Source: an uncultured Planctomycetia bacterium
GTDB lineage: Bacteria; Omnitrophota; Gorgyraeia; JABMRG01
Direction of reading: 5' to 3'
Assembly: GCA_964634945.1 (NCBI GenBank)
Contig: CAZWMG010000004.1
Location: 52,528 to 116,527 of the forward strand
Length of the DNA stretch: 64,000 nucleotides
Under the pieces are notes generated by a model. That model was not told where the DNA came from. It made no database searches and worked only from the letters and a program-made list of their open reading frames with translations. Positions within the stretch are counted from its first letter, which is position 1. The number at the start of each line of letters is the position of its first letter. Both the position numbers and the translations under genes were made by a program. Shown here in pieces: positions 3,758 to 61,896 of the stretch.

Positions 3758-6187
3758 TTATTCGCCGGCAGCTACTAAGGCGATTGCTGAAACACTGTCT
3801 TTCGGGGTCTTTAGTGTGATCATCTTAACCCCCTGCGTAGAGCGGCCGCTTGCGCGAATACCTTTCACCGATGTTCGTACAATCGTACCGCTTTCCGTAA
3901 TAATCATGAGCTCGTCTCTGTCTGTCACCATCTTTAAGCCGATTGCGCAACCTATTTTTGGCGAAGTTTTGAGATTAATTATACCTTTTCCCCCGCGTGA
4001 TTGCAATCTATATTCGCCGACCGGCGTACGTTTTCCAAAGCCCTTTTCTGATGCTGTTAGTAGTGTCGCGTCATCCTGCGCCACTACCATACCGATCACG
4101 CTGTCTTTTTTACCCAGCGATATGCCCTTGACCCCTCGTGCGGCACGACCCATGCTGCGAATGTCTTGTGCCTTAAAGCGTATTGCCTTTCCGTCGCGTG
4201 TCGCAAGAATAACATCTTGATGATCATCTGTAAGCACAACCTCAATAAGGCTGTCATCCGCATCGATGGTAATGCCTATAATCCCGCCTTTACGCGGGTT
4301 TGCGTACGCAGCTAGTTCTGTCTTTTTGATAATTCCTTTTGCGGTAGCCATCACCAGAGCGCCACCTTTATCAAATTCCTTGACTCGCATAAACGCGCTT
4401 ATCCTCTCTCCCGGCATAAGCTGTAATAAATTTACCAGCGCCTTGCCTTTGGAAGTGCGAGCTGCCTGAGGTATTTCATGCACCTTAAGCCAAAAGACCT
4501 TGCCCTTGTCACTAAAAAACAATATATGCTCATGCGTTGTCGCAATGAACAAGTGCTCGATAAAATCTTCGTCTTTAAGTTCCGCGCCCATCACGCCTCG
4601 CCCGCCTCGGTTTTGTTTGCGGTAAGAACTAACAGGCAACCGCTTAATATATCCTCCGTGGCTTACTGTAATCACAACGTCTTCTTCCGCTATCATATCT
4701 TCAATCTGCAGGTCTTCTACCTCTCCTACGATATCTGTCCTGCGCTCGTCTCCATATTTTTTCTGCAGCTCCACTAACTCGTCTTTTATAATCTTAAGGA
4801 CTTTTTTGGCGCTGGCAAGTATTGATTCATAAAGCTCTATTTTTTTCAGCAACTCAAGATACTCCTCCTCTAACTTAGTTCTCTCAAGCGCCGTAAGGCG
4901 CTGTAGCTGCATCTCTAATATGGATTGGGCCTGTATCTCGCTTAAGCCAAAGTTTTTCACAAGCGCCTTCTTGGCGGATTGCGTATCTTTTGACTGCTTG
5001 ATTGTCTTAATAATCTTGTCTATGTGCGTAAGCGCTATCTTTAAACCCTCTAATATGTGCGCTCTATCTTGCGCCTTTTTTAATAAGTATTGTGTTCGCC
5101 TTGTTATGATCTCTTTTCTGTGGTCGATATATATATCCAGAAGCTGCCTAAGGGTCAGCACGCGCGGCTGGTTGTTAACAAGCGCAAGCATGATAATGCC
5201 AAAGGTCGATGAAAGCTGTGTATGTTTATAGAGCTGGTTAAGTACTACCTGAGCAGGCCTATCACGTTTTAGCTCAACCACAACGCGAATACCCTCTTTG
5301 TCTGATTCGTCTCTAATATCTGAAATGCCCTCGATCTTTTTATCGGTGACGAGCTTCGCTATAGATTCGATAAGATTGGACTTGTTAGCCTGATAAGGCA
5401 GCTCTGTGATGATGATTGATGATTTGCCGTTCTTCTGTTCTTCGATCTGCGCGCGTGCGTGTAGCTTGATACGCCCGCGGCCTGTTGTATATGCGCTATG
5501 GATACCGCTCTTGCCGCAAATAGTCGCGCCTGTCGGAAAATCGGGCCCCTTCACGATCTTTAAAAGGTCCTTTACCGGTATATTTGGCTCATCGATGATT
5601 CTTATGATAGCGCCTGCTATCTCATTAAGGTTATGAGGAGGCATATTGGTTGCCATCCCTACCGCTATGCCACTACACCCATTTACTAATAACGTAGGCA
5701 GCGCAGAGGGCAATAAGACCGGTTCTTTTAAAGAACCATCAAAGTTAGGGGCAAAATCTATCGTGTCTTTATCGATGTCTGTTAATAACTCGTCAGAAAT
5801 TGAGGCCATGCGCGCCTCTGTATATCTCATGGCAGCCGCGGGATCTCCGTCAACAGAGCCCCAGTTGCCTTGTCCATCAACTAGCGGGTAACGCAAAGCA
5901 AAATCCTGCACCATGCGCACTAAGGCGTCATAAATAGAAGAGTCCCCATGCGGATGGTAACGGCCTAAGCAGTCCCCTACTATACGCGCGCTTTTCTTGT
6001 ATGGCTTGCTGTGCTGTAACGCTAAGCCGTGCATAGTGTAGAGGATTCTACGCTGCACCGGCTTGAGGCCGTCGCGCGCGTCTGGAAGCGCTCGCCCAAC
6101 AATAACACTCATCGCATAATTGATATATGACTCTTTAATCTCCGCTTCCACATATCTCTTTGTAATTCTCTCGCCGTGCGTATACAT
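3758..6187 (-). CDS. gyrA: DNA gyrase subunit A
   Basis: 809 aa. Active-site region [16 protein letters not shown], and C-terminal beta-pinwheel repeats. Confidence 0.95.
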
Positions 6188-6269
6188 ACTATTCCCTTTT
6201 TTAGTGTCTCGTTGTGCGTCGCGCGTATCGCGTATTGCGTAAAAACTGTAACGCGATACGCAATACGAA

Positions 6270-8870
<2,601 letters not shown>

Positions 8871-12878: not shown

Positions 12879-14492
12879 ATGAATAACGAGAAAAGATTAT
12901 TTTTAGCTATCGGCCTATCAGTGCTTATAATAGTAAGTTATCAAGCATATATGAGAAAGTATGCTAAACCGTATCATCCGCAAAGCATGAGTGATACGGT
13001 TGTAGAAACCGAAAAAGCGGCGCCGGTAATTCGCAAAACAACAAAAGTGCAAGAGGATTCTGTTAGCGTGCGCGCTGTTCCGGATATTACAACAACCGTA
13101 AGCAACGATGTTTTTACAGCAATTTTTACAGATAATGGGGCAGCGATAAAAGAGCTATATCTAATGCAATATTTAAATAGCGCAGGCGAGCCCACATTAC
13201 TATGCAGGCCAATAGAGCAGACACCGTACTTATTAGCAACAACAGAGAAGGCAGAGGCTATGCGCAAATGGCGCGTGGTTAGCAATAATAGCAATCATAT
13301 TGTGTATAAAAGCACACTAGATGGAATAGAAATAATTAAAACATTTAATTTCTATAACACTAAGCATATTATAGGGTTAGAAGTCGCAATACGCAACACA
13401 ACGCAGACACATAAACAGGTAAATTACGCACTTGGTAGTGGAGCGGTTGAGGCAAGTAGTGGCTACCTAGACAGTAGGTATATTGGGGCTGATGTGGATA
13501 TAGCGGGTAAGGTTCTGAGAAAGCGGCCATCAGGAAAAACCATAACAGACGGCATTTACGTAACCGGTTCCCCCGCATGGGTTTCAGTGCACGATAGGTA
13601 TTTTTCATTAGTCTTAAAGCCAGAGCAGCAAGAAGAAGGGGCGATCATAAAAAGCAGTACAAAGAAGAATATATGGTCAAGCATAATATCAGGGCCAGTG
13701 GCTTTAGGCCCAAGCCAAGTTGTTACGAGAAGCTACGTTCAGTATGCAGGCCCAAGTGATATTGCATCGATCTCAGAGTTAGGCGCATCAGCAGGCAATG
13801 TAATAAGTTACGGGTTTTTCCATCCCGTAGCAAAGGTGCTTTTCAGGGCCCTGCGCATGTTTTATCGAATAACAGGTAATTACGGTTTATCCATTATTCT
13901 TTTATCGCTTACTATCAGCTTAATAATGATGCCGCTTACGAGAAAGAGCCTGCATTCCATGAAGGCTATGCAGGCGATTCAGCCGGAAACAGAACAAATA
14001 CGCAAGGCCTATAGCGACAATCCGCAAAAAATGAACAAAGAGATCATGGATCTCTATAAAAAGCATAAGATAAATCCTGTAGGAGGCTGTTTGCCAATGT
14101 TGTTGCAACTGCCGATTTTTATGTCTCTATATCAGGTCTTGTTGCGTAGCGTGGCATTGCGTGGGGCACATTTTTTATGGATTAAAGATCTCGCAGGGCC
14201 GGATGCGGCATTTACATTGCCGCAAAAATTCCCAATAATTGGCAACCATATTAATATATTACCAATTTTAATGGCTATTGCTATGTGGGGACAGCAAAAG
14301 ATGTCACAGGGTGGAGGTAAGGAGGTATCAGACCAGCAAAAGATGATGGCAACAATCATGCCTATAATGTTTGGCTTTATCTTTTATAACATGCCTTCCG
14401 GTCTTGTATTATATTGGTTCACAAACACACTGTTTATGCTGCTCATACAGGAAGTCGTCTTAAAGGTGCGCAAACCGGCGATCAGCCAGTAG
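12879..14492 (+). CDS. yidC: Membrane protein insertase YidC (start at MNNEKRLFLAIGL; the track ORF begins at 12834)
   Basis: Large periplasmic domain, then the conserved C-terminal 5-TM core (PMLLQLPIF..LYQ). Confidence 0.9.
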   Translation: MNNEKRLFLAIGLSVLIIVSYQAYMRKYAKPYHPQSMSDTVVETEKAAPVIRKTTKVQEDSVSVRAVPDITTTVSNDVFTAIFTDNGAAIKELYLMQYLNSAGEPTLLCRPIEQTPYLLATTEKAEAMRKWRVVSNNSNHIVYKSTLDGIEIIKTFNFYNTKHIIGLEVAIRNTTQTHKQVNYALGSGAVEASSGYLDSRYIGADVDIAGKVLRKRPSGKTITDGIYVTGSPAWVSVHDRYFSLVLKPEQQEEGAIIKSSTKKNIWSSIISGPVALGPSQVVTRSYVQYAGPSDIASISELGASAGNVISYGFFHPVAKVLFRALRMFYRITGNYGLSIILLSLTISLIMMPLTRKSLHSMKAMQAIQPETEQIRKAYSDNPQKMNKEIMDLYKKHKINPVGGCLPMLLQLPIFMSLYQVLLRSVALRGAHFLWIKDLAGPDAAFTLPQKFPIIGNHINILPILMAIAMWGQQKMSQGGGKEVSDQQKMMATIMPIMFGFIFYNMPSGLVLYWFTNTLFMLLIQEVVLKVRKPAISQ

Positions 14493-15535: not shown

Positions 15536-16391
15536 GGCATTGGGCAAGGGATTGCAAGCGCTTATACCAGAGGTGCAGGAGAGTGACACGAGCGAGTTGG
15601 CGGTTAGTGCGCGAACAGGCTTGACGACAGTGGCGATTTCAGAGATCAAACCTAACCGTTATCAGCCACGCACCGCTTTCAAGACAGAAAAATTAGATGA
15701 GCTCGTAGCGTCAATTAAAGAAAAGGGGATTGTGCAACCGGTGCTTGTCAGGAAAGCAGACATAGGATATGAGCTTATAGCCGGGGAGAGGCGTTTCAGG
15801 GCAGCCAAAAAATTGAATTTGCAAAAGATCCCTGTTATTATCAAAGACGTCGATGATGTTAACGCGATGGAGATAGCGCTTGTAGAAAATATCCAGCGGG
15901 AAGACTTAAACCCGATAGAGGAAGCCAAGGCGTACAAGCGCCTGAGTAACGAATTTGGTTTTACACAAGAAAAAATTGCCCAATCCGTAGGCCGCGACAG
16001 AACCTCAGTGACAAATATTTTGCGGCTGTTAAGCCTGCCGGGACAGGTACAGCAGTTGATCCTTGATGATGCCATATCAATGGGGCACGCGAGGGCCTTG
16101 CTCAGTATATCCGGCGAGCGTAAACAGTTAGCTATATGCGACAAGATAGTCCGTAAACGTCTTTCAGTAAGAGAGGTAGAGCAGTTGGTGAGGCCGCAGG
16201 CACCGAAGAGGGGGCAATCCGCGTATCGCAATCCGGACCTCCATATAAAGGCGGTTGAAGATGAGCTTCAGCAAGCTTTTGGCACAAAAATAAAGATCCA
16301 GCATGGTAAAAAACGCGGTAAAATCGTTATCGACTACTACTCTTTAACCGATTTGAACCGTATTGTAAAAATCTTAAAACATAAATCTTAA
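15522..16391 (+). CDS. parB: ParB/Spo0J partition protein
   Basis: GERRFRAAK motif and HTH. Confidence 0.9.
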   Translation: MEKHKALGKGLQALIPEVQESDTSELAVSARTGLTTVAISEIKPNRYQPRTAFKTEKLDELVASIKEKGIVQPVLVRKADIGYELIAGERRFRAAKKLNLQKIPVIIKDVDDVNAMEIALVENIQREDLNPIEEAKAYKRLSNEFGFTQEKIAQSVGRDRTSVTNILRLLSLPGQVQQLILDDAISMGHARALLSISGERKQLAICDKIVRKRLSVREVEQLVRPQAPKRGQSAYRNPDLHIKAVEDELQQAFGTKIKIQHGKKRGKIVIDYYSLTDLNRIVKILKHKS

Positions 16392-16399
16392 CATATATA

Positions 16400-16428
16400 T
16401 TGACTTTTTCGTAGCACAACATATAATA
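16400..16428 (+). promoter_or_regulatory. Promoter (TTGACT, 17 nt, TATAAT) upstream of the ndk leader
   Basis: Read directly. It is followed by a GATACTAGGTGC element. Confidence 0.4.
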
Positions 16429-16458
16429 AATAGATACTAGGTGCAAAGGAAAAAAAGC

Positions 16459-16514
16459 ATAAAGTATAAAGTATAAAGTATAAAGGATAAAGGATAAAGG
16501 ATAAAGGATAAAGG
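16459..16514 (+). repeat. Tandem heptanucleotide array: (ATAAAGT)x3 then (ATAAAGG)x5
   Basis: Seen directly in the 5' leader of ndk. Confidence 0.9.
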
Positions 16515-16607
16515 TATATGTCTTGATATGGAATAAACAATAGTCCGCAACTTACAACTTAATCGTTACAACTAAACACGAATATAACTTATTACAAAAG
16601 GCAAATA

Positions 16608-17108
16608 ATGGAAGAAGCGACATTAGTACTAATTAAACCAGATGGCCTGAAAAAATCATTAACAGGCAATATCTTAACGCGCCTTTCAGAGACAAAACTA
16701 GATATTGCAGCAGCTAGGATAGTGCATGTCAGCACAGGCCTTGCTAGAGAGCACTACGAAGCGTTGTCAGGCAAGCCGTTTTTTGATGACTTAATACAAT
16801 ATATAAGAGGCGAGTTCCACGAGAAGCGGAAAGTTATGGCAATGGTTTATTATGGAGAAGGCGCCATAGCGAAGGTGCGCCAGCTAGCAGGCGCGACTAA
16901 CCCGGAAGAAGCGGACGCGGTAAGCATCCGCGGGCAATATGGCCGCATTACGACAAAAGGTGTGTACGAAAACGTTATACACGCTTCAGCGGACAAGGAA
17001 GACGCGGAGCGGGAAATCAAGCTTTGGTTTGAGCCTGAGGAAGTCATAGTAGATCTCTATCCTACCAAAATGCACGAGAAGAAAATACTCGGTAAGGCCT
17101 GGGCGTAA
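16608..17108 (+). CDS. ndk: Nucleoside diphosphate kinase
   Basis: LIKPDG.., active-site NVIHASAD. 166 aa. Confidence 0.8.
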   Translation: MEEATLVLIKPDGLKKSLTGNILTRLSETKLDIAAARIVHVSTGLAREHYEALSGKPFFDDLIQYIRGEFHEKRKVMAMVYYGEGAIAKVRQLAGATNPEEADAVSIRGQYGRITTKGVYENVIHASADKEDAEREIKLWFEPEEVIVDLYPTKMHEKKILGKAWA

Positions 17109-17187
17109 ATAAGTTACAAGGCATAAGGATTTCCGCTGCAGGCGGGCCAGCCTTGGCTGGAAATACAAAATAGACGTTAATCCACGA

Positions 17188-17232
17188 CTTACAATTTACC
17201 ACTTACCACTTACCACTTACAACTTACAACCA
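17188..17232 (+). repeat. Tandem heptanucleotide array (ACTTACA / ACTTACC), about 6 copies
   Basis: Seen directly. The same family appears in reverse-complement orientation at 32046..32090. Confidence 0.85.
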
Positions 17233-17272
17233 ATCACGGATAAGACTCGTGATAAAAGCAAAGGCACAGCAT

Positions 17273-18154
17273 ATGTTGCGCAGTATGACAGGTTTCGGCA
17301 AAGGTGTGGCAGAAGGCAGGCAAGGCACAGTAAAAGTAGAGATCAAGAGCCTGAACTGTAAATTTTTTGAGGTGGTGAGCAAATTACCGCCTAACCTTAC
17401 TATGTTGGAAGATAAGATACGCGAGTTACTACAGAGACGCATATCGCGCGGCAGATTAACGCTCTTTTTAAGTTACACCTCGAGGGTGACAAAGGGTGAC
17501 GAAGTCCATATCGACAAAAAAATAGCAAAGCAGTACCATAATAGGATTAAGGCACTGCAAAAGTTTCTAGGCATTAAGGGAGATATCGAGCTTGAGCAGA
17601 TCATAGCCTTGCCCGGAGTCATAGCGTATCATCCGCAGGCAGACGACGCTAAGAAGCTTTGGCCGCTTATTTCTAAAGCGCTTGTCTTGTCTATAGAAGA
17701 CATTACACGCTCCAAGGCAAGAGAAGGAGCGATGCTGGGCAAGAACCTGCGCCAGATAGTCAAGACGGTTGAGGCCGGGCTTAAAAAGATACAAAAAAGA
17801 GCGCCTATAGTGGCGTTTGATTACAAGAAACGGCTCAGGCAAAATGTAAAGGCATTGACCGGCACCAGAAAGATACATAGCCCGGAAAGAATAGAAGAAG
17901 AAGCGGCTATCTTTGCGCGCAATTGTGATGTTACCGAAGAGATGCATAGGCTCTGTGCCCATATATCAGGGTTTAGAAAAATTCTTTCAAATAATGGGGA
18001 AACAGGCAGGCGGCTTGATTTTGTCGCGCAGGAGATGTACCGCGAGGCGAATACAATAGGCGCGAAGGCGAACGATTTTTTTATAGCAAAAGAGATCATT
18101 AAGATCAAGAGTCAAATAGAAAAAATAAGAGAGCAGGCTCAAAATGTCGAATAA
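17273..18154 (+). CDS. yicC: YicC-family (UPF0701) stress-induced protein. Start probably at [11 protein letters not shown]; the track ORF begins at 17249.
   Basis: N-terminal MxRSMTGFG motif. Conserved position upstream of DUF370-gmk-rpoZ. Confidence 0.8.
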
Positions 18155-20536: not shown

Positions 20537-20593
20537 TTATGCGGAGAGGCAAAGGCAAGGGTAGAGGAAAAGGTATATAGCATACATTTATGT

Positions 20594-23385: not shown

Positions 23386-23493
23386 CACGGTAGGCGCTTA
23401 TTAGCGGTGAGCCACTATAGGCTCACTATAGCATGTGACAGCAGCCGCTTAAACTAAAACGAAGAAGTGGCTTGTGTACGAAAGGAGGAGGTT

Positions 23494-24003
23494 ATTATAG
23501 AAAAGCGTTTAAGAGTTAATGAGCAGATCAGAATAAGTGAGATCCGGGTTGTGGGCCCTGCGGGAGAGCAGCTTGATGTGATGAGCCCCCAGGACGCATT
23601 GATAAAAGCTCGAGAAGCAGGACTGGATCTTGTAGAGGTAGCGCCAACATCCAGGCCGCCGGTCTGTAGAATCATGGATTACAGTAAATATAAGTACGAC
23701 CAGGACAAGAAAAAGAAAGAGGCAAGAAAGCGCCAGCATACCGTGAAGCTAAAAGAGATACGGTATAAGACCAGGATAGAAGAGCACGACTACCAGACAA
23801 AGCTCGCCCATATAAAGGACTTCATGACAAAGGGGAGCAAGGTCAAGATTAGCTTACGTTTTCGCGGCAGAGAGCTAGCGCATCAAGAGATAGGAGGCGC
23901 TTTATTGGATAGAATAATAAATGATATATCCAGCATAGGGGAGCCAGAAAAGCGTCCGTCTCGAGAAGGCCGCTTTTTGAACATGGTCTTAGTGCCAAAA
24001 TAA
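23494..24003 (+). CDS. infC: Translation initiation factor IF-3, probably starting at a non-canonical ATT/ATA codon
   Basis: RBS AAGGAGG at 23482-23488, then in-frame ATT (23494) and ATA (23497). The protein continues IIEKRLRVNEQIRISEIRVVGPAGEQLDV, which is IF3-like. Confidence 0.85.
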   Translation: MIEKRLRVNEQIRISEIRVVGPAGEQLDVMSPQDALIKAREAGLDLVEVAPTSRPPVCRIMDYSKYKYDQDKKKKEARKRQHTVKLKEIRYKTRIEEHDYQTKLAHIKDFMTKGSKVKISLRFRGRELAHQEIGGALLDRIINDISSIGEPEKRPSREGRFLNMVLVPK

Positions 24004-24137
24004 GATAAGCCCTCGCTTGTTTAAAGAGATATCGCAGGCATAAGGCCGGGCTTTTATATAGATTCCTCATTACGAATACAGCAAGTACCGCTGTTAGAGG
24101 GCAGTATAGTATTGTATATTTACGAAAGGTAAAGATT

Positions 24138-24329
24138 ATGCCAAAACTCAAGACAAGAAAAGCAGTAAAAAAACGTGTGACAATTACCAAGACAGGGAAG
24201 GCAAAGGCGAAAAAATCATTTTCCGGGCATCTAATGACATCTAAAAACAGAAAACGAAAGCGCAACTTGAAGCAGAAAGCTGTGCTTACAAAGACCGAGT
24301 CTGCTAAGTTGAGGATAATGATTACTTAG
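24138..24329 (+). CDS. rpmI: 50S ribosomal protein L35
   Basis: MPKLKTRKAVKKRV.., 63 aa. Confidence 0.9.
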   Translation: MPKLKTRKAVKKRVTITKTGKAKAKKSFSGHLMTSKNRKRKRNLKQKAVLTKTESAKLRIMIT

Positions 24330-24348
24330 CAGGAGATATAAGTTGTGG

Positions 24349-24457
24349 GTAATTGCTACCCCCGCTGTTTCGCTTTGCGAAACAAAGCGACAGGGGTTAA
24401 TTCATCCCTCTTCTTGCTTGCGCAAGAAAGCAGAGGGGCTCATTAAGGAGACAAATC
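24349..24457 (+). promoter_or_regulatory. Structured leader: hairpin-1 (ends GGGG), TTAATTC, hairpin-2 (CCCTCTTCTTGC..GCAAGAAAGCAGAGGG), then SD AAGGAG. Duplicated upstream of the COG1900 gene (40145..40230).
   Basis: About 60 nt are nearly identical at the two loci. A third variant lies upstream of trkH. Confidence 0.5.
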
Positions 24458-24802
24458 ATGGCAAGAGTAAAACACAGTGTAGCGTCACTAAAAAAACGAA
24501 AGAGGGTCTTGAAAGCCGCCAAGGGTTATGTGGGCGGGCGCAGTAAGCTTTTTAGGACCGCTAAAGAGACGGTTATGCGGGCAGAGGCATATTCTTACAG
24601 GGACAGAAAAGTTAAGAAACGCACTTTTCGTTCTTTGTGGATTGCTAGAATAAGTGCCGCTTGTAAGGTAAATGGCCAGACATATGCGCGCTTTATCAAC
24701 GGCCTAAAGAAGGCTAAGATAGCCCTTGACAGAAAGATGTTAGCAGAGATAGCGGTTTCGCACAAGACTGCCTTTAAGCGCCTCGCGGAGCTTACAAAAT
24801 AG
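24458..24802 (+). CDS. rplT: 50S ribosomal protein L20
   Basis: MARVKHSVASLKKRKRVLK.., 114 aa. Confidence 0.9.
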   Translation: MARVKHSVASLKKRKRVLKAAKGYVGGRSKLFRTAKETVMRAEAYSYRDRKVKKRTFRSLWIARISAACKVNGQTYARFINGLKKAKIALDRKMLAEIAVSHKTAFKRLAELTK

Positions 24803-26319: not shown

Positions 26320-26543
26320 TTTGGGTATTGGTACAAGGATAAAGGCTAAACACTAAATCCTAATATCGAAATCCTAAACAATATCAAATGACCAAAATGC
26401 AAAATTCAAAACAATACGATTTAGCAGAAGGAACATTTGTTGAGAAGCTAAAGCAATGTTTTGAACACTCGATATTGGAATTTTGAATTTGTTTAGAATT
26501 CAGGATTTAGTGCTTAGGATTTAATATTTAAAAGGGAGATAAA

Positions 26544-27209
26544 ATGAGACAATTTGCCGTAGTTGGGTTAGGAAGATTTGGCTCTAGTGTCGCGGAAACC
26601 CTAAGCAGCAAGGGATGTCAGGTGCTGGCCATTGATACGGATGAGGAGAAGGTTCAGGATCTTTCAGAGGTTGTGGCGCAAGCAGTTTGCGTTGACGCTA
26701 CCGACGGGAAAGCGTTAAAGGCTGTTGGTATAGAACCTGTAGACGTGGCAATAGTAAGTGTCGGAGGCAATATTGAGTCTTCGGTCCTGATTACTCTGGT
26801 GCTCAAGGAGATAGGGATCAAGGAGGTGATCGCGAAAGCGGTCACAAAAGACCACGGAAAGGTGCTGGAAAAAGTAGGAGCGGATAGGGTGGTATTTCCG
26901 GAACGGGACATGGGTATCAGAATAGCTAACGCGCTTACGTCGCCAAAAGTAAGCGAACATATCGATCTTTCCTCAGAGTGCAGCATAATAGAAATAAAGG
27001 CTCCGGAAGAGTTTATGGGCAAGAGCCTAAAACATTTGAATTTGCGTGTCGAGTTTGGCCTGAATATCGTGGCGATTAAAAGCAAAGACGCAAAAGGTGA
27101 GGAAGTGATTAATCCTACGCCGGAGGCAGATTACAAGATTAGGCCGCAGGATAAGCTTATGATAGTAGGGCCAAATCAGAACATTGAAAAACTTAAGAAG
27201 AAAGCATAA
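26544..27209 (+). CDS. trkA: TrkA/KtrA K+ transport regulatory subunit (RCK_N + RCK_C)
   Basis: Rossmann motif VVGLGRFG. 221 aa. Confidence 0.85.
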   Translation: MRQFAVVGLGRFGSSVAETLSSKGCQVLAIDTDEEKVQDLSEVVAQAVCVDATDGKALKAVGIEPVDVAIVSVGGNIESSVLITLVLKEIGIKEVIAKAVTKDHGKVLEKVGADRVVFPERDMGIRIANALTSPKVSEHIDLSSECSIIEIKAPEEFMGKSLKHLNLRVEFGLNIVAIKSKDAKGEEVINPTPEADYKIRPQDKLMIVGPNQNIEKLKKKA

Positions 27210-28256: not shown

Positions 28257-28350
28257 TTCTTGTATCGCGTATTGCGTAAAGATACCGCAATACCTGCCTG
28301 CCGGCAGGCAGACGCATAACGCACGACGCAATACTGAACAAAGAAAAATT

Positions 28351-30390: not shown

Positions 30391-30727
30391 TATCTTGATT
30401 TCATACAAAAATATTGATATAGTAAAAGTGTCCCTGCTGTGTGCGTGGCGCTTTGATGCAACTTTGAGCCAACACCTTTATACCGGGAGCCCGACGTAAC
30501 AAGAGATAATGGCATGCTCTTGATAGCAAAGAGAAGCCTGAATGCTTGGACAGGGCACCCACCTAAATATAAGGGTTCAAAGTCCATCAGTTGCCCGGCA
30601 CGTGCGGGGATTGTTTTTCGTATTGCGTCGTGCGCCTGCCTGCCGGTAGGCAGGTATATCGTATCGCGTGACAATATTAACATAAAATATAAACGCAATA
30701 CGAGTCACTAGTAAACAAAATCATGCC

Positions 30728-32038: not shown

Positions 32039-32098
32039 TATAAAAACTATATAGCTGTAAGTTGTAAGTTTTAAGTCGTAAGTCCTAAGCATTAACTT

Positions 32099-32146
32099 CA
32101 AGACCGGTTCTCAAGCACAGGTGGTTGTGCTTGAGAACCGGTCTTG
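32099..32146. repeat. 48-nt perfect palindrome (REP-like): CAAGACCGGTTCTCAAGCACA-ggtggt-TGTGCTTGAGAACCGGTCTTG
   Basis: 20-21 bp stem. A near-identical copy (46/48) in inverted orientation lies at 61691..61738. Confidence 0.9.
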
Positions 32147-32287: not shown

Positions 32288-35200
32288 ATGACAAAAAAAA
32301 CTATAACACTTATACTTATAATAAGTTATATCATAACATCTAGCGGTCCTTGCTACGGTTTCGGCGCTAAGACGCTATTCACGCGCAAATCTCATGCACA
32401 AAGGCATGTAAATGCTTCTGCCAAGGCTGCGGAGAAGGATATTCTGGAGGCTTCTTCATCTCTTAGTATACCAAAAAGCCTCGGCCGCGTAGTTGAATCC
32501 TATAAAGGCAAAAATAAGAAGTTAATAATCCATATTCAGGACCGCCACGTAGACCCGGTTACGCAGAACAATATCGCGTCAATAATAGAGGCCTTGAATC
32601 TGCAGCACAATATTTATCTTATGTGCCTTGAAGGCGCTTTTAATGAACTTGATACATCGTTTTACAATAGTTTTGAGGATGCAGTGCTAAAAAAGAAGGT
32701 TGCGGAGGTTTTTGTGCAACAAGGCCTTTTTACAGGCCCGGAATTCTACAAGATAACCAATGCGGAAAATTACATAAGGGCCGTTGGCGCGGAGGATCGT
32801 GCGTTATATTTAAAACATCTTGCCAATTATAAGGAGAACCAGATCAATAAAGATGAAATTACAAGGCTCCTCAGGCATATGGGCAAAGCTACAGACGCGC
32901 TTAAGAAGCATGTTTTCTCTAAGGAGTTGATAGCATTAGACAAGGTTTCTCGCGATTACGTTAACAAGCAGATCGACCTGCCTGAATATCTTCTCCAGCT
33001 GAACGCGTATGCAGCCAAGTCCGACATATTGCCAGAGGAGTATTCTAATCTAAACAAATTTATCCATCTTACGGAAAGAGAACGCAGCATAGATTTTAAA
33101 GCAGCGGAGCAAGAGAGAGAATCGCTGATAAGATATTTTTCAGAGCGCCTGCCAAAAGAAGGCGTCCAGGCGCTCGTCCAATTAAGCCTTGATTTCCGTT
33201 CAAACAAGGTCTCAGATATTGTTTTTCACGACTACCTTGAGAGCTTAGCAGTTGAGCATGGGTTAAATAGCGCTATTTATAAAAACCTTGTTGCGTATAC
33301 AGAATATTTGAGGCTTTCTAGGGAGATAAACCATCTAAAGGTCTTTGATGAAGCACAAGATCTAGAGGAAAGAACGCAGATAGCGCTTTGCAATAACCAA
33401 GACCAGCAGAGCCTTGTTCAATATTCAAAATCAGTGAGCATGTTAAAAGATCTATATGCACTCAAGCTTACGCATCGTCATCTAGATTATATGGACGAGC
33501 ACCCGGGCTCGTTTGATATAGCAAACATACAAAAGTTTTTAAACAAAACATCTGCCAAATACGGCTTAGATACATTGTTAACCGATAGCTTAATAAGCCC
33601 GGATAGGCAGGCGCTTAATAATTCAAAAGAATTTTACCGCCTCGCGCTAATGCGTGACATTGCCCTTACAGACAACACATTAAAGCGCATGAAGCAGTAT
33701 CGTAAGGACAAGGCGATTCTTGTTACAGGAGGCTTTCATACTCAGGGCATAACAAATATTTTAAGGAAAAAAGACATATCATATGTTGTCATATGTCCTA
33801 CCATAGGCCTTAATGATTGCGATAAGATCTACGAAAAGCGGATAAATGGCACTCTTCCTAGTATGTATGCGTTGCAAACAGCATTGGCTAATATGTTATC
33901 TGTGCAGCTTAAGTCTGGCGAGGCTGATGTGCAGGAGCTCTTTTCTAAGGCCTACCAGAGCGTTTCTCAGCCTGCTGTAGAAGCCCAGGATATATTGATA
34001 GCCAAAGCCTCGTCATCAGGATTAGGTGGTTATGTAGTCAAAAACTTAATAGTTGCTGCAACAGTAGCGCTATTGGGAACAGGGATTTATATCCAGCAGT
34101 CTTCAGTAAGTTCTCAGAAAGACGCAATGGATACATTTGTGATAGCAAAGGCATTGCCATCGGATCAGTGGCAGATTATTTTAGATACATTAAGAGAGAT
34201 TTACGCCCTTATAAAAGACATAGAAGCGCCGAAGCCGCGCCAGATGGAGATGAAATTCAAGGTTGGCAAGGCGGCACGCATTTTACGTGATTACATAACG
34301 AATAATTTAGATAGTATACATAAGTATGCTAAGGAGGAGGGGATAGAACCGAATTATCTTGCGGCAATAATCATAGCAGAGCAGATGGATATAGACGAAT
34401 TTAGTTTAAAAGGTGAGGGCACAGATAAGATTCTGCCGCGTCTTCATATACGTGATACATCGCGGGGCCCGGGGCAGATAACAGAGCGGGCGCTTAAAAA
34501 GCATTGTAAAGAGACGCGGTGGCCCGCGTATGATAATCGATCTACGGAAGAGCTCTCCGATTCCGAGATAAATGCTATCCTAATGGGTGAAGGGGGCAAC
34601 CTGACAGACCACATAAGGGCGATAGCGATAATCTTAAGGGGAAAACGTGATTCTATTAAAGATTCTGCCGCGCTCTCTCTTGTTCAAGGCAAGCTGCAGT
34701 TAGGCGCGCTTTATACATCAACATACAGGGGCCTCGTAAAGGAGGATAAGGAGGATTTCTGTACATTCAGACAACTAAGAGAGAGCGAAAAAATACGGAC
34801 ACAGGTTTATGCGCATGCTGTAATTATCTATGAAGACTTTGTAAGCAAATGGCTGCGCTACCATAAATATGCATATGTGCCAGATGACATGTTATCTATG
34901 ACACTGCCTACCGATAACGCGGTTGATAGCGGCGCTGACGGCATTCAAGATATACAGGCAAAGGCCTCATCATCAGGCAGGAAGATAATGCATGTATGGG
35001 AGAATGGACACCCTGTCCTACCAGGGGGTTCACAAGCTACGCTTATGGCAGGATTAGGCGTATGTTTTGCAGTAGCTGCTAAACATACAAAAACAGAAGA
35101 AAGGTATATGGCGCACCTGTATCCGCTTCGACAAACAGGGGGCGCAGCAGGGAACTGGAAAGACGCGTATATCAATACGATGCTTAGCCGGCTCGATAGT

Positions 35201-38200
35201 TTCAATGTTCAACCACCAGGCCACAGGATAGATAAAGCCCGTAAGGGGAATGGATGGAATGCCGTTGTTATCCCGTCAGGTAAAGAGCTTGACGGTTATC
35301 CAAAAGAGGATAGAATCACGTTAGAGGACATAACAGAGAGGCTGGAGGCGGCTGGTGTAGATTTTATCGCAGACATTAACAGGGCCCACAAGTTAGTTAG
35401 ATTCCAAAAAGACGGCTCCATAAATATTATTCTGCCGGAAACGCCGGAAGCCTCTTATGACATTACTGCGCTGACGAAGGCTTCATCATCAGGCCGCGAT
35501 ATAGACAGAGGCTCTTTTTATAATCTTATACCTTCTGAAACCAGGCCAAGCGCAAAGATATATGATTACACCGATACAGAGGACAGGTATGAGATAATAG
35601 AATCGCTTAAGAGCAGTAATTGGTATTACCAGGCAGACGGTGATGGCCAGAAAGCCGCGATAATCAACAGGGCCTTTAACACGCTATCCGACTCTGCTAT
35701 TAACCAGCTAAAGAGTATTATAACAGAGCGCATGCAGGAAAACGGCAATGCTATAACAGAAGACACTATAGAGAGTATTATGGTATATGGAAGTTGGATA
35801 TATAATTTCGATGACAAGAAGATTTCTAATGATATCGATTTCGCGGTTATAGCAAAAGGAGATATACCCGTTCAGTCTATAAGAGGCGTAAGGATTCCGA
35901 AAACACTTTTTAAGGACACAGCCGATATAATACCGGTAGAACAAGCCGACATAAGGATTATAGGCACAGAACAACTCTTGTTAGCACCCGATGAAAAGGA
36001 GTACGAGACTACCCACTTTGAGGTATCTATGCAGGGCCACGGCATATTGCTCTGGGGCAGGAACTTCTTTCAGAGGCAGCCTATGGCGCACAATCTTATG
36101 GTGATGGCCAGAACGTTTTTATCTATTATGGAATTTTATCTGGATGTAAAATTACACAGCACGCATTATCCAGAAGAGTATTTAGATACTCTGAATAAAA
36201 GGCTGGATGAGGTGTATAATATTTTTAAGGTGCTGTTTAAAAATCTTGACCAGCCGGAACAGCCTTTAGCTGTAGGTATTATTCCCGTAGATAAGGCAGT
36301 AAAAGATATGAAGGCAGTAATGCGTAATGTAAGAAAATACTTAGACGGCTATTCTTATGAAGCGTTCCAGGATATCCTTAATACCGGTGTAGCGTCTGGA
36401 TTGAATGCACTTTATGTCCAGACCGAGACCAAGTTCATGAAAGAGTCGTTAGAAGCTCTTGGAAAAAAGACACAGGCCAGGACTTCATCATCAGGGGCAA
36501 TAATTACGCGCCCATTAGATAAGATACCGCCGGAAGAGATAAAGAATATTCTTGTTGTAGGTGATTACAAAAAGATAATACCAATGCCTAAATTAGGCGA
36601 GACAATAATAGATTTATGGCCGCTTGTTACTTCTCTTTGTAAGAAATACCCGGAATCAAAGATATTCGTATCAGCCCCTTATACGGAATTTTATTTAGCA
36701 GGCGACTTTAAGGGGCAGGTGGTCCCCATACCAAGCACAATAAAAGATATCCGTGACTGGGGCTACGCTAAATCAACATGGATTACAGATGATATTAACG
36801 GAGAGAAGGTATTGCGGTATAATGCGAAAGATATGTGCGCGTTAACACAGGCCGGCTATAAGGCGCGAAAGGAATTTATTCAGGACGAGATAATATTTGA
36901 GAGAAAACAGGAAGACCGGACAGGCGGTGAGGCGGGAACGGGAATCGATATGGTTTTTGATGTATCTGTGGCGCAGGGCCTGCGCAATGAGTTTTTAGGT
37001 AAGCAGCGCGGCAGACAGCCGTATTATTTTTCCATAGCCTCTTTTCTTAAGTATGCAAGCGCAACGAACGTATCCGTCGGACGCTATGATCAGGAATGTC
37101 CTGCGCAATACCGTGACAAGAAGGGTGATATTCACGACGTAAATTATGGTAATACGCTGGATGGCTTTCTTAACGTTCCTATGCTTAAACAGGCAGATAT
37201 ATGGAAGGCATCAATCGCTATTACCGCCGGCCTGGGCCTTGATGTAACGCAAGATAGTCTCAGATATATAACTTTAACCGAAAGTGAACGCCAAAACGCG
37301 ATAAGTTTTTTATCAGAAGTAAGCGGTATTTTTGATGGAAAGAACGAGACTGCTATTTTTGATACGACGAAGAAGATTATTCTTGTTAATGTATACGCAC
37401 AGACACAAAGTGTTTTAATGGGTTATACAATCGACCAGCAGATAGACACTTGGGTAGATTGCATAAGCACAACTCTCAAATCAATGAGAAACACCTATAT
37501 TGTTTTTACGAGAGGCGGGGAGATGGATGATAACTATACGTTTGTTGACCAGGTTGCAAGGGAGCTGATAAAAAGAAGCAAGGGCTCTGTCGCTCCACAT
37601 CAGAACGCTGTAATCCTGCCAAAAGAATCATTATATTCAAGGATTAACGAGGTTGTTGGCTTATCAGATGCGGTAATAACCCTGGATACGGGTATGAGCC
37701 ATTATGCTAACGGGGTATTTAATAAGCCTACACTCCTTATTACATCATCCAATATTCTGCACTGGGCTGCACCAAGAGAGAATGTATACCCGATAATACG
37801 CACCACGATACCGCAAAAAAATACTCACTATACAGAATTAGACAGTATTAAGCACGCAACCATGCTTTTGAACGCATTGTTAGGTGTAAAATCAGTCCGT
37901 GAAATACTTAAAAGCAGAAAACAGGCCAAGGCATTATCGTGGCTCGATTCCAATGATAGAATGCAGCAGCTCAGGACGCTTATGCAGCGCAAGTACGACC
38001 CTGCCGCAGAGATAGTTATGGATGATGTTGTGGATCAAATATTTCCAAAAGTTGTAGCGGATTTTATCGAGAAGAAAGCCGGGCGAAACGCAGAATATCT
38101 TTGGCCGCTTAGTGTTTCACCTAAAGCCTCTTCCGCTGGTACGAAGATATTGGATGAGGAATTATATTATGACGTAAGCGAGGCTATAGAGAAGAGCATA

Positions 38201-38890
38201 GAGCCTCTTTATGAGAAGGCCAGCAGTCTTGGGCTTGGGCGGCTGACATTTATTACAACGGTGCGCGAACTTACAGAGATAGATAAGAAACATTTAAGAA
38301 ACCTCGCCAGGCAAAATTCAGGGCTGCCGGATGATGCCCCGAAAAAGATAACCATAATAGCCTTGCACGATCAGCTGATAGGCGCGCTGAAAGGGTGCGG
38401 TTTTACTGATACAGGCGCCAGGCCTTCTGTGTTAGGTGTTAATTCCTTCAGTTTCTTGCCGGACTTTTTGGGCAGGGGCTGGGATAACATAGATGACGAT
38501 GAAAAGATGGCTATGGTAGCTGCGCATGCACGCACTCAGAATAAGGCCGTCATAACGATAACGGATGATATAGCTGCACAGGGTATCGCCTCTGTGATAC
38601 CCGCATACCTAAACGACAGGATGAAAGGAAGAGTCGTTATAGCGTCTATGAAAGGGGCAGAGCAAAAGACGCGGATCGGATACGATACAATAGAAGAAAA
38701 CGGCATACTCTTTAGTGCGATACTCGCCAATGCCGTTAAGGAGATAGGCACACAACTTATAGGGAGCAAGGATCAGGAATTATTTATACTGAATATATTG
38801 CCGCCTATTAATAGCAAGGCATTCGAAGAATTTATTCATAGCCTCATGGATATCAAAACCGCGGTTGAAGCAACTGCTTCAGCAGCCTAA
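32288..38890 (+). CDS. Giant 2200-aa mosaic protein. Signal peptide, then an N-terminal IHIQDRH/GGFHTQG domain (TraB/TIKI-like?), then a TM helix near residue 585. A minimal nucleotidyltransferase domain (GSx12DIDF) follows, then a GT9 heptosyltransferase-like domain. Six K/T-A-S-S-S/A/L-G linker motifs separate the domains.
   Basis: Single uninterrupted frame. Motifs read from the translation: VYGSWIYNFDDKKISNDIDFAVI; ILVVGDYKKIIP..LITLDTGMSHYANGV; KASSSG at about residues 570, 890, 1060, 1400 (TSSSG), 1960 (KASSAG) and 1990 (KASSLG). Confidence 0.85.
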   Translation: MTKKTITLILIISYIITSSGPCYGFGAKTLFTRKSHAQRHVNASAKAAEKDILEASSSLSIPKSLGRVVESYKGKNKKLIIHIQDRHVDPVTQNNIASIIEALNLQHNIYLMCLEGAFNELDTSFYNSFEDAVLKKKVAEVFVQQGLFTGPEFYKITNAENYIRAVGAEDRALYLKHLANYKENQINKDEITRLLRHMGKATDALKKHVFSKELIALDKVSRDYVNKQIDLPEYLLQLNAYAAKSDILPEEYSNLNKFIHLTERERSIDFKAAEQERESLIRYFSERLPKEGVQALVQLSLDFRSNKVSDIVFHDYLESLAVEHGLNSAIYKNLVAYTEYLRLSREINHLKVFDEAQDLEERTQIALCNNQDQQSLVQYSKSVSMLKDLYALKLTHRHLDYMDEHPGSFDIANIQKFLNKTSAKYGLDTLLTDSLISPDRQALNNSKEFYRLALMRDIALTDNTLKRMKQYRKDKAILVTGGFHTQGITNILRKKDISYVVICPTIGLNDCDKIYEKRINGTLPSMYALQTALANMLSVQLKSGEADVQELFSKAYQSVSQPAVEAQDILIAKASSSGLGGYVVKNLIVAATVALLGTGIYIQQSSVSSQKDAMDTFVIAKALPSDQWQIILDTLREIYALIKDIEAPKPRQMEMKFKVGKAARILRDYITNNLDSIHKYAKEEGIEPNYLAAIIIAEQMDIDEFSLKGEGTDKILPRLHIRDTSRGPGQITERALKKHCKETRWPAYDNRSTEELSDSEINAILMGEGGNLTDHIRAIAIILRGKRDSIKDSAALSLVQGKLQLGALYTSTYRGLVKEDKEDFCTFRQLRESEKIRTQVYAHAVIIYEDFVSKWLRYHKYAYVPDDMLSMTLPTDNAVDSGADGIQDIQAKASSSGRKIMHVWENGHPVLPGGSQATLMAGLGVCFAVAAKHTKTEERYMAHLYPLRQTGGAAGNWKDAYINTMLSRLDSFNVQPPGHRIDKARKGNGWNAVVIPSGKELDGYPKEDRITLEDITERLEAAGVDFIADINRAHKLVRFQKDGSINIILPETPEASYDITALTKASSSGRDIDRGSFYNLIPSETRPSAKIYDYTDTEDRYEIIESLKSSNWYYQADGDGQKAAIINRAFNTLSDSAINQLKSIITERMQENGNAITEDTIESIMVYGSWIYNFDDKKISNDIDFAVIAKGDIPVQSIRGVRIPKTLFKDTADIIPVEQADIRIIGTEQLLLAPDEKEYETTHFEVSMQGHGILLWGRNFFQRQPMAHNLMVMARTFLSIMEFYLDVKLHSTHYPEEYLDTLNKRLDEVYNIFKVLFKNLDQPEQPLAVGIIPVDKAVKDMKAVMRNVRKYLDGYSYEAFQDILNTGVASGLNALYVQTETKFMKESLEALGKKTQARTSSSGAIITRPLDKIPPEEIKNILVVGDYKKIIPMPKLGETIIDLWPLVTSLCKKYPESKIFVSAPYTEFYLAGDFKGQVVPIPSTIKDIRDWGYAKSTWITDDINGEKVLRYNAKDMCALTQAGYKARKEFIQDEIIFERKQEDRTGGEAGTGIDMVFDVSVAQGLRNEFLGKQRGRQPYYFSIASFLKYASATNVSVGRYDQECPAQYRDKKGDIHDVNYGNTLDGFLNVPMLKQADIWKASIAITAGLGLDVTQDSLRYITLTESERQNAISFLSEVSGIFDGKNETAIFDTTKKIILVNVYAQTQSVLMGYTIDQQIDTWVDCISTTLKSMRNTYIVFTRGGEMDDNYTFVDQVARELIKRSKGSVAPHQNAVILPKESLYSRINEVVGLSDAVITLDTGMSHYANGVFNKPTLLITSSNILHWAAPRENVYPIIRTTIPQKNTHYTELDSIKHATMLLNALLGVKSVREILKSRKQAKALSWLDSNDRMQQLRTLMQRKYDPAAEIVMDDVVDQIFPKVVADFIEKKAGRNAEYLWPLSVSPKASSAGTKILDEELYYDVSEAIEKSIEPLYEKASSLGLGRLTFITTVRELTEIDKKHLRNLARQNSGLPDDAPKKITIIALHDQLIGALKGCGFTDTGARPSVLGVNSFSFLPDFLGRGWDNIDDDEKMAMVAAHARTQNKAVITITDDIAAQGIASVIPAYLNDRMKGRVVIASMKGAEQKTRIGYDTIEENGILFSAILANAVKEIGTQLIGSKDQELFILNILPPINSKAFEEFIHSLMDIKTAVEATASAA

Positions 38891-42141: not shown

Positions 42142-42235
42142 GCGCAAAAATAGTGAGATGCTTGATACTAGATGCAGGATGAAAACATTAAAGGCGCTTA
42201 ACTTTGTAACATAACTAGTGAAGATAGGATGAGAT

Positions 42236-46035: not shown

Positions 46036-46189
46036 TAATATAGTTTAATATAAGCAATTTGACAAGGCACAAGGTGTAAGGCGCAAGGCGATTACTGCTA
46101 TCCCAAGCAGCCATCGCGTTATTCTTAGTCTTTGACTATAGATGATAATCTTGCGCCCTGTGCCTAATACCTATTTTCATCATAAAGCT

Positions 46190-47753: not shown

Positions 47754-47808
47754 AAAGGCGCATGTGATAAGGCACAAGGAAAAAGGATAAAGGTTAAAGG
47801 TTAAAAAA

Positions 47809-50715: not shown

Positions 50716-50808
50716 TTATAATGGATACTAGATGCTGGATGCAAGATGCTAGATACAAGGGTACAAGGCATAGGGCACAAGGAAAAAGGCAAAAGCAAAA
50801 AGGTTAAC

Positions 50809-61628: not shown

Positions 61629-61690
61629 CCCCCCCCTAGCGATACCCCTATGGCACTTACCAATTTTTCCCAGGAACAGTTCTTTTTAGC

Positions 61691-61738
61691 CAAGACCGGT
61701 TCTCAAGCACAACCACCTGTGCTCAAGAACCGGTCTTG
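61691..61738. repeat. Second copy of the 48-nt REP-like palindrome, inverted relative to 32099..32146, with 2 substitutions
   Basis: CAAGACCGGTTCTCAAGCACAACCACCTGTGCTCAAGAACCGGTCTTG. Confidence 0.9.
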
Positions 61739-61781
61739 AGCCATAATCAGCTAATAATGTTTAATTTTCCTGGGTTTTTTC

Positions 61782-61810
61782 TTGACAACATAAACAGTTT
61801 CTGATAAAAT
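61782..61810 (+). promoter_or_regulatory. Promoter (TTGACA, 17 nt, TAAAAT) for the terminal gene
   Basis: Read directly. Confidence 0.4.
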
Positions 61811-61896
61811 CTTTTTTATACCTTTTAAAATATCATTAGAATAGCATTGAGGACATCTAAGCCTTTCCGCATATCCTTAGATAGCGGAAAAACAAG

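Follow-up and report, generated by a model that had tools for sequence, protein, structure and literature searches.

Cyanobacterial genomes carry short tandem heptamer repeats, known as STRR, whose units include CCCCAGT, TTGGTCA and CAACAGT. We analyzed 64,000 nt of DNA from an uncultured bacterium of the phylum Omnitrophota (contig CAZWMG010000004.1 of assembly GCA_964634945.1, positions 52,528 to 116,527, forward strand; hereafter the window) and found that its intergenic spacers harbor short tandem arrays of seven-base units, one of them in the leader of ndk. We propose that these arrays are most probably heptanucleotide simple-sequence repeats of the same kind as STRR, the TAACTGA repeat of Beggiatoaceae and the GGGAATC repeat of Xanthomonas. 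Heptamers are the most abundant class of long simple-sequence repeats in most repeat-rich bacterial genomes; polymerase slippage has been proposed as their origin, and slippage may be favored at this length by an interaction of some 7 nt with the replicative polymerase (Mrazek 2007, as cited in PMC4679880 and PMC4692102).

The arrays of the window share several properties with STRR and other long heptamer repeats. They consist of tandem 7-nt units belonging to several families in one genome, they are intergenic, occur in both orientations and form occasional inverted pairs, and their length and sequence differ between close relatives; such repeats have no established function, and slippage has been proposed for them. 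In contrast to the cyanobacterial repeats, the units are of the AAAGG, CTTAC, GATGC and GCGTAT types, none being CCCCAGT, TTGGTCA or CAACAGT; each array is short, with 4-8 units, and the commonest unit is the core of the Shine-Dalgarno (SD) sequence. The STRR-type repeats offered as one possibility by the first-pass annotation of this DNA are thus an apt comparison for the kind of repeat and not for its unit sequences.

The TAACTGA repeat of Beggiatoaceae is similar in forming short arrays (2-6 copies there, 4-8 here) that lie mostly in sense orientation just upstream of the starts of unrelated, often essential genes, and a translational role has been suggested for it, with S1, Csp and CsrA discussed as binders (PMC4679880). 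However, one unit dominates there, which is not complementary to 16S rRNA and appears to take the place of the SD sequence (PMC4679880), whereas the window has several units, the main one being the SD word itself, and no TAACTGA unit in its arrays. Inverted arrangements also occur among the GGGAATC/GGGGAYT repeats of Xanthomonas and Nostoc, whose G-rich units can form G-quadruplexes (PMC4692102); the A-rich units of the window contain at most GG or GGG, and no quadruplex is expected from them. Our literature search found no paper on heptamer or tandem repeats in Omnitrophota and none of relevance on CsrA in this phylum. The repeat is of a known kind and apparently new for the phylum.

Arrays of period seven in the non-coding DNA of the window

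A self-match scan of the whole window (lags 2-21, frame of 28 nt, threshold of at least 22 matches) returned matches at lag 7 (four), lag 14 (four) and lag 21 (one) only. When the non-coding DNA was scanned at lags 4 to 15 with a threshold of at least 16 matches in 21 and 200 shuffles as control, nine arrays were found at lag 7 against 0.03 in the shuffles, and no lag besides 7 and 14 attained 16/21. This is the comparison with shuffled intergenic sequence that the first-pass annotation had proposed, and within the window it came out clearly in favor of the arrays. The intergenic total of 8.6 kb used here counts about 2.1 kb of coding DNA, the non-coding part being about 6.5 kb, and the enrichment is therefore slightly understated; the gene-free-looking stretch at 61629-64000 is mostly an open reading frame (ORF) that starts at 61908 and runs past the edge of the window.

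Independent measures gave the same picture. Base autocorrelation in the spacers peaked at 7, 14 and 21, and coding DNA showed period 3 only. Tandem Repeats Finder reported the ndk array (16454-16514, period 7, 8.7 copies, 96% matches) as well as period-7 or period-14 arrays at 17187, 32056, 46063, 47776-47805 and 50722-50803. Pairs of AAGG at distances of 7, 14 and 21 numbered 17, 14 and 15, compared with about 3-4 at other distances, and there was one CCTT-CCTT pair at distance 7. A 50-kb control from the oriC region of E. coli, scanned in the same way, contained no lag-7 array, compared with eight in the first 50 kb of the window. The period-7 phenomenon, with 9-10 arrays in the window or roughly one every 7 kb, is thus real and greatly exceeds chance, and it consists of head-to-tail tandem copies of 7 nt, as in the heptanucleotide repeat class.

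The arrays are confined to non-coding DNA once two gene starts are corrected. Database homologues place the start of porA at ATG 50809 (362 aa) and not at the ORF call of 50746, and that of ispA at ATG 47818 (272 aa) and not at 47809; yicC likewise starts at ATG 17272, as in relatives, and not at 17249. The 5' extensions of the ORFs at porA and ispA are artefacts of the arrays or their flanks, and with these starts the description of all arrays as intergenic in the first-pass annotation holds.

Unit families and their placement

The window has at least five unit families. They occur in either orientation and in every kind of spacer, be it a 5' leader, inside an operon, 3' of a gene or between tRNA genes (Table 1). 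The sign of the GC skew flips near 12 kb, and the window is therefore the chromosomal origin region. The genes dnaN and dnaA lie on the minus strand, and from about 12 kb onward rnpA, yidD, yidC, parA, parB, ndk, yicC, remA, gmk, rpoZ and coaBC lie on the plus strand. Since the genes after 12 kb are essentially all on the plus strand, almost every spacer discussed here has plus as its sense strand.

About half of the arrays have the sense-strand unit NN(A/C/T)AAGG, namely those at 16459, 17116, 20544 (degenerate), 26333, 46063, 47767 and 50757. The base 3' of AAGG is A, C or T. No more than roughly one AAGG unit in three contains GGA, and GGA pairs show no clear peak at lag 7 (22 pairs, versus 29 at lag 6). 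The TGTAAGT unit at 32056 belongs to the same broad family (NNTAAGT), and the ACTTACC/ACTTACA units at 17187, together with the degenerate copies at 16544-16592, are the reverse complement of this TGTAAGT type, which thus occurs in both orientations. Units of the form TAGATGC/TGGATAC occupy 42155 and 50722, where AAGG is absent, and these two arrays have GATACTAGATGC in common. GCGTATC-type units at 6208/6250, 28262/28311 and 30618 form inverted pairs around hairpins, and TAAATCC-type units at 26347-26381 and 26490-26531 make up both arms of a hairpin some 190 nt long. Within the 64 kb the AAGG type recurs at 7-8 loci, the CTTAC and GCGTAT types at three each, and the GATGC type at two.

Table 1. 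Heptamer arrays of the window and features associated with them
Feature	Positions	Strand	Sequence or units	Context
Inverted pair of arrays	6208..6278	-	GCGTATC-type array and inverted copy	82-nt spacer between two minus-strand genes
Promoter-like site of ndk	16400..16427	+	TTGACT-16 nt-TATAAT	11/12 consensus positions; top match in 17 kb
ndk array	16459..16514	+	(ATAAAGT)x3 at 16459-16479, then (ATAAAGG)x5 at 16480-16514	ndk leader
Two mini-ORFs	16518..16536	+	ATGTCTTGA and ATGGAATAA	3' of ndk array; three codons each (two sense and stop)
Degenerate array	16544..16592	+	Degenerate ACTTAC-type heptamers	Distal ndk leader; resemble yicC-leader array (alignment, 7-nt register)
Two AAGG units	17116..17129	+	ACAAGGC ATAAGGA	Directly 3' of ndk stop codon
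yicC-leader array	17187..17228	+	ACTTACA ATTTACC ACTTACC ACTTACC ACTTACA ACTTACA	Antisense of GGTAAGT; 44 nt upstream of yicC ATG 17272
Degenerate array	20544..20578	+	Degenerate AGG-type heptamers	tRNA-Cys to tRNA-Val spacer
Array and hairpin left arm	26333..26381	+	ACAAGGA TAAAGGC TAAACAC TAAATCC TAATATC GAAATCC TAAACAA	3' of trkH stop
Hairpin right arm	26490..26531	+	Inverted heptamers AGGATTT, TGTTTAG	trkH-trkA spacer
Inverted heptamer arms	28262..28335	+	GTATCGC GTATTGC, hairpin CCTGCCTGCCGGCAGGCAG, ACGCATA ACGCACG ACGCAAT	Fold z -4.58
Array	32056..32090	+	TGTAAGT TGTAAGT TTTAAGT CGTAAGT CCTAAGC	17 nt 3' of mgsA-like stop; hairpin 32098-32146 follows
Array	42155..42182	+	GAGATGC TTGATAC TAGATGC AGGATGA	Upstream of Rrf2-family regulator gene
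Array	46063..46090	+	ACAAGGC ACAAGGT GTAAGGC GCAAGGC (register 46062)	ymdB-xseA spacer
Array	47767..47801	+	ATAAGGC ACAAGGA AAAAGGA TAAAGGT TAAAGGT	xseB-ispA spacer; ends 16 nt before ispA ATG 47818
Array	50722..50756	+	TGGATAC TAGATGC TGGATGC AAGATGC TAGATAC	porD-porA spacer
Array	50757..50805	+	AAGGGTA CAAGGCA TAGGGCA CAAGGAA AAAGGCA AAAGCAA AAAGGTT	porD-porA spacer; abuts 50722 array

Every array site listed by the first-pass annotation exists, and the ndk array reads exactly as stated there. The conserved AAGG/GGA motif that it ascribed to the arrays fits less well: AAGG marks about half of them, GGA is not conserved, the array at 20544 is degenerate, and those at 42155 and 50722 are built on TAGATGC. 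Its placement of most arrays between a -10 box and a start codon, filling many 5' leaders, is true of ndk only, the other arrays being located in spacers within operons, 3' of genes and between two tRNA genes. Our promoter scan, in which promoter-like matches were overall no more frequent than in shuffles, revealed no convincing promoter before any array other than that of ndk, and no array lies between -35 and -10 hexamers. Arrays are borne by four spacers that lie inside operons of the relatives (xseB-ispA, porD-porA, trkH-trkA and ymdB-xseA), and those at 17116, 26333 and 32056 are found directly 3' of stop codons and 5' of hairpins. At gathering thresholds, no Rfam family covers any array in the whole window.

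Two candidate pairings between arrays were considered and rejected. The arrays at 17187 and 32056 are complementary (duplex of -29.6 kcal/mol); they are 15 kb apart and have no reason to interact. Pairing of the AAGG array with the ACTTAC arrays flanking ndk (-7.6 and -10.0 kcal/mol) was no better than the shuffle means (-10.3 and -8.1 kcal/mol).

Birth of the ndk array

We compared the window with a series of relatives drawn from one protein search and two scans of sequence collections. The Ndk protein encoded at 16608-17108 has its close relatives exclusively in Candidatus Omnitrophota metagenome-assembled genomes, and gene order is conserved between the window and the relatives. Graded by protein identity, L001-L003 and L169 represent the same strain, L084 and L164/L165 represent a sister species (about 91%), and L085 and L086 (about 80%), L004 (about 78%), L170 (75%, IspA) and L005/L087 (about 60-65%) are more distant.

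Both hexamers of the promoter-like site upstream of ndk are conserved in the alignment with L084, L085 and L004, and this site places the ndk array in a predicted transcribed leader. The leader is predicted to be unstructured, its fold being no different from shuffles (z -0.43). The promoter and the start region align in all species compared, and the 56-nt array and a further 74 nt are found in the window only. The array is absent from L084, L085 and L004, which have a single AAAGG/TAAGG at the homologous place ('AAAAAGGCATATAATGG' or 'CATAAGGTATATTATGG' in L084/L085); the leader there reads 'GAAAAAAAGGCATATAATGG' in L084 and 'AACATAAGGTATATTATGG' in L085, with one SD word each. The array thus grew from the SD-proximal heptamer after the split from L084, a lineage-specific birth that postdates a split at about 91% protein identity.

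The remainder of the leader may record a second event. The two mini-ORFs that follow the array read ATG TCT TGA and ATG GAA TAA, and the ATGGAA of the second is also the start of ndk itself (ATGGAA at 16608), 80 nt further on. Compared with 'AAGGTATATTATGGAA' in L085, the second mini-ORF may be a remnant of the ancestral ndk start. The extra 74 nt resemble the ACTTAC-type leader of yicC in an alignment and are flanked by ATGGAA on both sides, which suggests a duplication or an insertion bounded by a 6-nt direct repeat. At the other end of the gene, L084 reads AAAGGCACAAGGCGTTAAGG at the place of the two AAGG units that follow the ndk stop codon.

Turnover of the arrays between species

Spacers with and without arrays evolve differently. 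In alignments of the window with L084/L165, spacers free of arrays show 85-89% identity and no more than 4 gap columns, compared with 35-57% identity and 21-136 gap columns for array-bearing spacers. The xseB-ispA spacer has five AAGG units of period 7 in the window and AAGG repeats of period 6 in L165, where about five AAGG motifs are retained despite the change of period; in L170 the two genes overlap. The porD-porA spacer is degenerate in L165 and has no counterpart in L170, measuring 93 and 83 nt in this genus against about 0 in distant relatives. Similarly, the trkH-trkA spacer is 224 nt in the window and 18 nt in distant relatives, the ndk-yicC spacer 140 nt versus 42 and 24 nt (both from the L004/L005/L170 set), and the ymdB-xseA spacer 106 nt versus 31 nt in L170. 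Judged from these alignments, both the copy number and the sequence of the arrays change quickly between species, as is typical of heptamer repeats.

Two further arrays could be followed at orthologous places. Degenerate copies of the yicC-leader unit are present in L084 and L085, and the three perfect ACTTACC units in the middle of the array in the window indicate that part of an older array was recently amplified anew. The spacer between tRNA-Cys and tRNA-Val, which contains the array at 20544, is alignable with L085 and L086, and measures 11 nt in L004. We also observed period-9 repeats (TTACAAAGG TTACAAAAG TGCGAAAGG TTAAAAAAG) between tRNA-Cys and tRNA-Val of L084 (about 13990-14040).

Within the strain, the window and L169 differ by 5 substitutions and 0 indels over 11,977 nt spanning four arrays, one of the substitutions lying inside the xseB-ispA array (47767..47801), and the ndk-yicC array (17187) is identical in three Logan assemblies. 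The start of the Logan contigs within (ATAAAGG)5 simply reflects a repeat too long for k=31. The arrays are unlikely to be assembly artefacts, since independent assemblies agree.

Three genes at 23467-24802 (178, 63 and 114 aa) resemble infC-rpmI-rplT, though only in size and order. The spacers between them measure 128-134 nt and contain strong hairpins that are not heptameric; the corresponding spacers measure 12-28 nt in L004.

The commonest unit and the Shine-Dalgarno word

Of 53 genes, 13 have AAGG at a distance of 5-10 nt upstream of the start codon and 14 have it within -20..-4, compared with 10 genes for GGAG/GAGG in the latter interval. AAAGG is, moreover, the most over-represented 5-mer of the sense-oriented spacers, with 25 occurrences against 8.8 expected and 4 of its reverse complement. 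AAAGG pairs with CCUUU of the anti-SD sequence; a search for the 16S 3' end, the source of the anti-SD, found none in the fetched loci. On the basis of AAGG being the commonest SD core and of the over-representation of AAAGG, the unit of the AAGG class can be identified with the SD word of the organism itself, extended by two or three neighboring bases, as far as the spacer sequences tell.

This identity raises the question of whether the AAAGG arrays act in translation. As a multi-SD standby platform, they could hold 30S subunits or terminating ribosomes near the next start codon, replacing translational coupling at xseB-ispA and porD-porA in this genus and boosting or tuning the translation of ndk. 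Besides the abundance of the word, several features agree with this proposal: all AAGG arrays are in sense orientation, the last AAAGG of the array at 50757 lies 5 nt before the porA ATG and is itself the porA SD, the ndk array follows a conserved promoter and is predicted to be unpaired, the ispA and porA arrays are suitably placed, L165 keeps its AAGG motifs between xseB and ispA although their period has changed, and genes overlap or abut in relatives that lack the spacer. We nevertheless consider it unlikely. It leaves out the arrays of other units (TAGATGC, GCGTATC and TAAATCC), the antisense ACTTACC arrays, the AAGG units 3' of genes and the array in the tRNA spacer; the absence of the ndk array at about 91% protein identity shows that it is not an old regulatory element, and repeated re-amplification without selection could also preserve the motifs. 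A stronger version, in which (NNAAAGG)n would be selected as single-stranded, multivalent 30S landing pads that replace coupling at xseB-ispA, porD-porA and trkH-trkA and tune the ndk leader, with copy number as a fast-evolving control of translation rate, seems similarly doubtful. The likeness to SD arrays put forward in the first-pass annotation therefore applies to the AAGG class and does not extend to the other units or to arrays 3' of genes.

Heptamers in other Omnitrophota

Among 80 loci from genome assemblies, lag 7 was the commonest intergenic period, with 36 arrays including the window and 27 without it, compared with 1-9 arrays for other lags, the multiple 14 aside. Lag 7 again ranked first among 80 metagenome loci (20 arrays), followed by lag 9 (13) and fewer for the rest. 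The units vary widely from species to species and include AAAAATC, TAAGAAT, AAAAGTC, CCACAGT, CAGTAGT, GCGATAA, ACGCAAG, TTCGGTG and CAACTTG, and no AAGG signal of period 7 was detected outside the window's lineage in the Omnitrophota loci scanned. Purine-rich and pyrimidine-rich orientations both occur in these loci, and some arrays lie between convergent genes. Period 7 is thus general in the Omnitrophota loci and the unit is lineage-specific; this combination of a shared period with differing units argues for a length-specific generating process and not for one conserved binding word.

An ACTG/CAGT core is common in the other Omnitrophota arrays (AAACTGA, with one exact TAACTGA in L012, CAGTAGT, CCACAGT and ACTGCAT), at L012 7689-7725 and 18908-18937, L028 11289-11326, L070 20423-20472, L036 20279-20354 and L020 4918-4952. 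The STRR units of cyanobacteria and the TAACTGA repeat of Beggiatoa have this core as well.

Binding by a protein was a further function suggested for the arrays, in the first-pass annotation as platforms for CsrA/RsmA. CsrA/RsmA targets and CsrB/Rsm decoys also present repeated purine-rich, SD-like motifs in untranslated RNA, some units of the window contain GGA, and unit families recur at many loci. A 7-nt register might equally suit one monomer of an OB-fold or cold-shock-domain protein per heptamer, and it equals the footprint reported for B. subtilis CspB on heptamer repeats (reviewed in PMC4679880). However, GGA is not conserved in the arrays, their 7-nt spacing is shorter than that of known CsrA sites (PMC4679880), and the sites lie outside hairpin loops, being predicted single-stranded in the ndk leader. 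A search of 16350-17300 against Rfam at E values up to 10 gave no CsrB/Rsm-type match and three chance-level, unrelated hits, and tblastn found no match to csrA, hfq or cspA in the window or in related loci totaling 2.08 Mb, which cover part of the genome only. More generally, the units differ among species and occur in both orientations. An RNA-protein platform of either type is in our view highly improbable, and a role of the arrays as CsrA/RsmA sites is disfavored.

Palindromic elements and possible DNA-level roles

Some heptamers are organized as long palindromes. The trkH-trkA spacer (26320-26546) is predicted to form a hairpin of about 190 nt (z -4.19) with arms of TAAAYYC heptamers, and its left arm matches a non-orthologous site, the coaBC-tRNA-Cys spacer of L004 (13915-14040), at about 85% identity over 49 nt. 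Weaker matches to the palindrome at L088 1770-1905, L056 8417-8494 and L071 11471-11522 are all predicted to fold as hairpins as well. The TAAAYYC hairpin therefore looks like a dispersed, possibly mobile, heptamer-periodic palindromic element.

These palindromes bear on DNA-level roles, in which the arrays would be phase-variation loci or the subrepeats or end-repeats of a MITE-like mobile palindromic element. In Haemophilus influenzae, 7-bp repeats upstream of the adhesin genes hmw1A and hmw2A are reported to tune expression in a phase-variable manner; there as here, a tandem 7-bp unit lies upstream of a gene, and its copy number could in principle tune expression. In contrast to hmw1A and hmw2A, the genes flanking the arrays of the window (ndk, yicC, trkA, xseA, ispA, porA and an Rrf2 regulator) are housekeeping genes and not surface or virulence genes, the arrays are imperfect, no array separates a -35 from a -10 box, and copy number was constant in five arrays among samples of the strain. 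For a mobile element, inverted heptamer arrays form predicted long hairpins, related palindromes stand at the non-orthologous sites of L004, L088, L056 and L071, and the 80-nt extra segment of the ndk leader has ATGGAA on both sides. However, blastn among the window spacers revealed no long dispersed elements; the spacers have only the units and two hairpins in common, and no longer element bodies. Overall, we consider DNA-level roles improbable, and the sequences suggest a mobile palindromic element only for the TAAAYYC hairpins.

Two other palindromes were observed in the window. The hairpin CCTGCCTGCCGG(C/T)AGGCAGG occurs twice (28293-28312 and 30635-30654; 0.03 expected), flanked by GCGTAT-type heptamers in inverted orientation, and a similar hairpin (GCCTGCCTGTTGGCAGGCAG) is found in the dnaA-rpmH spacer of L004 (about 5490-5520). 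A 49-nt palindrome, AAGACCGGTTCTCAAGCACA...TGTGCTTGAGAACCGGTCTT, is present at 32098-32146 and 61691-61739 in copies that are 96% identical, each 3' of a gene end, and is probably a shared terminator-like or REP-like element. The window also encodes a full-length 6S RNA at 30428-30614 (Rfam RF00013, 87.6 bits), just upstream of the MgsA-like AAA+ ATPase gene, and its largest gene is an ORF of 2200 aa (32288-38890).

Discussion

We interpret the arrays as heptanucleotide simple-sequence repeats, a classification that we hold with good confidence, and we regard birth, amplification and decay driven by slippage as the probable mechanism behind them. A 7-nt word already present in a spacer would be duplicated by strand slippage at replication and then amplified. 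Point mutations would create variant units, which would be amplified in turn and give rise to blocks such as those of the ndk array, and frameshifts would restrict the arrays to non-coding DNA. The seed used most often in this genus of Omnitrophota would be the local SD word AAAGG with its neighbors, which would explain why many arrays read NNAAAGG on the sense strand at or upstream of starts. Slippage would also have lengthened the spacers, among them those inside operons where more distant relatives have short spacers or overlapping genes. It fits the arrangement of the ndk array in blocks and its recent birth from one SD word, the indel-rich turnover of array-bearing spacers, and the variety of units, orientations and contexts. 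We infer that most arrays serve no dedicated function and have only side effects, on spacer length and leader structure and perhaps on 30S binding.

Several observations weigh against slippage as the full explanation. A few unit families recur at many loci of the window and at orthologous loci of sister species, and local random seeding does not obviously predict the recurrence of ACTTACC, TAGATGC and GCGTATC. AAGG units are found after stop codons, far from starts, in the window (17116 and 26333) and in L084, L086 and L004, so that seeding by the SD word cannot cover all arrays. The palindromic arrays at non-orthologous sites suggest dispersal rather than slippage in place, and the preference for a length of seven is unexplained by a slippage account. 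The sense-strand bias of the AAGG arrays (7-8 sense to 0 antisense, against a background AAGG:CCTT ratio of 1.8:1) is marginally significant and hints at a constraint at the RNA level. Additionally, no copy-number change was seen in five arrays among samples of one strain, a small sample. The first-pass annotation had entertained slipped-strand variation of spacing and proposed comparing array copy number between strains or in read data: the variation is seen between species, and the assemblies of the strain showed no difference.

Heptamer repeats of bacteria have been known since the STRR sequences were described, and neither the preference for seven bases nor a function has been established for them. 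Omnitrophota adds a lineage that is independent and deep-branching and in which heptamer arrays are locally very dense, and the many metagenome-assembled genomes available allow arrays to be dated, as exemplified by the ndk array. For annotation, the arrays matter because they break assemblies built with k=31 and create false 5' extensions of ORFs, as at porA and ispA. Furthermore, the main unit is the SD core and lies at junctions that are coupled in relatives, so that a translational effect of the repeats can be put to a concrete and cheap test.

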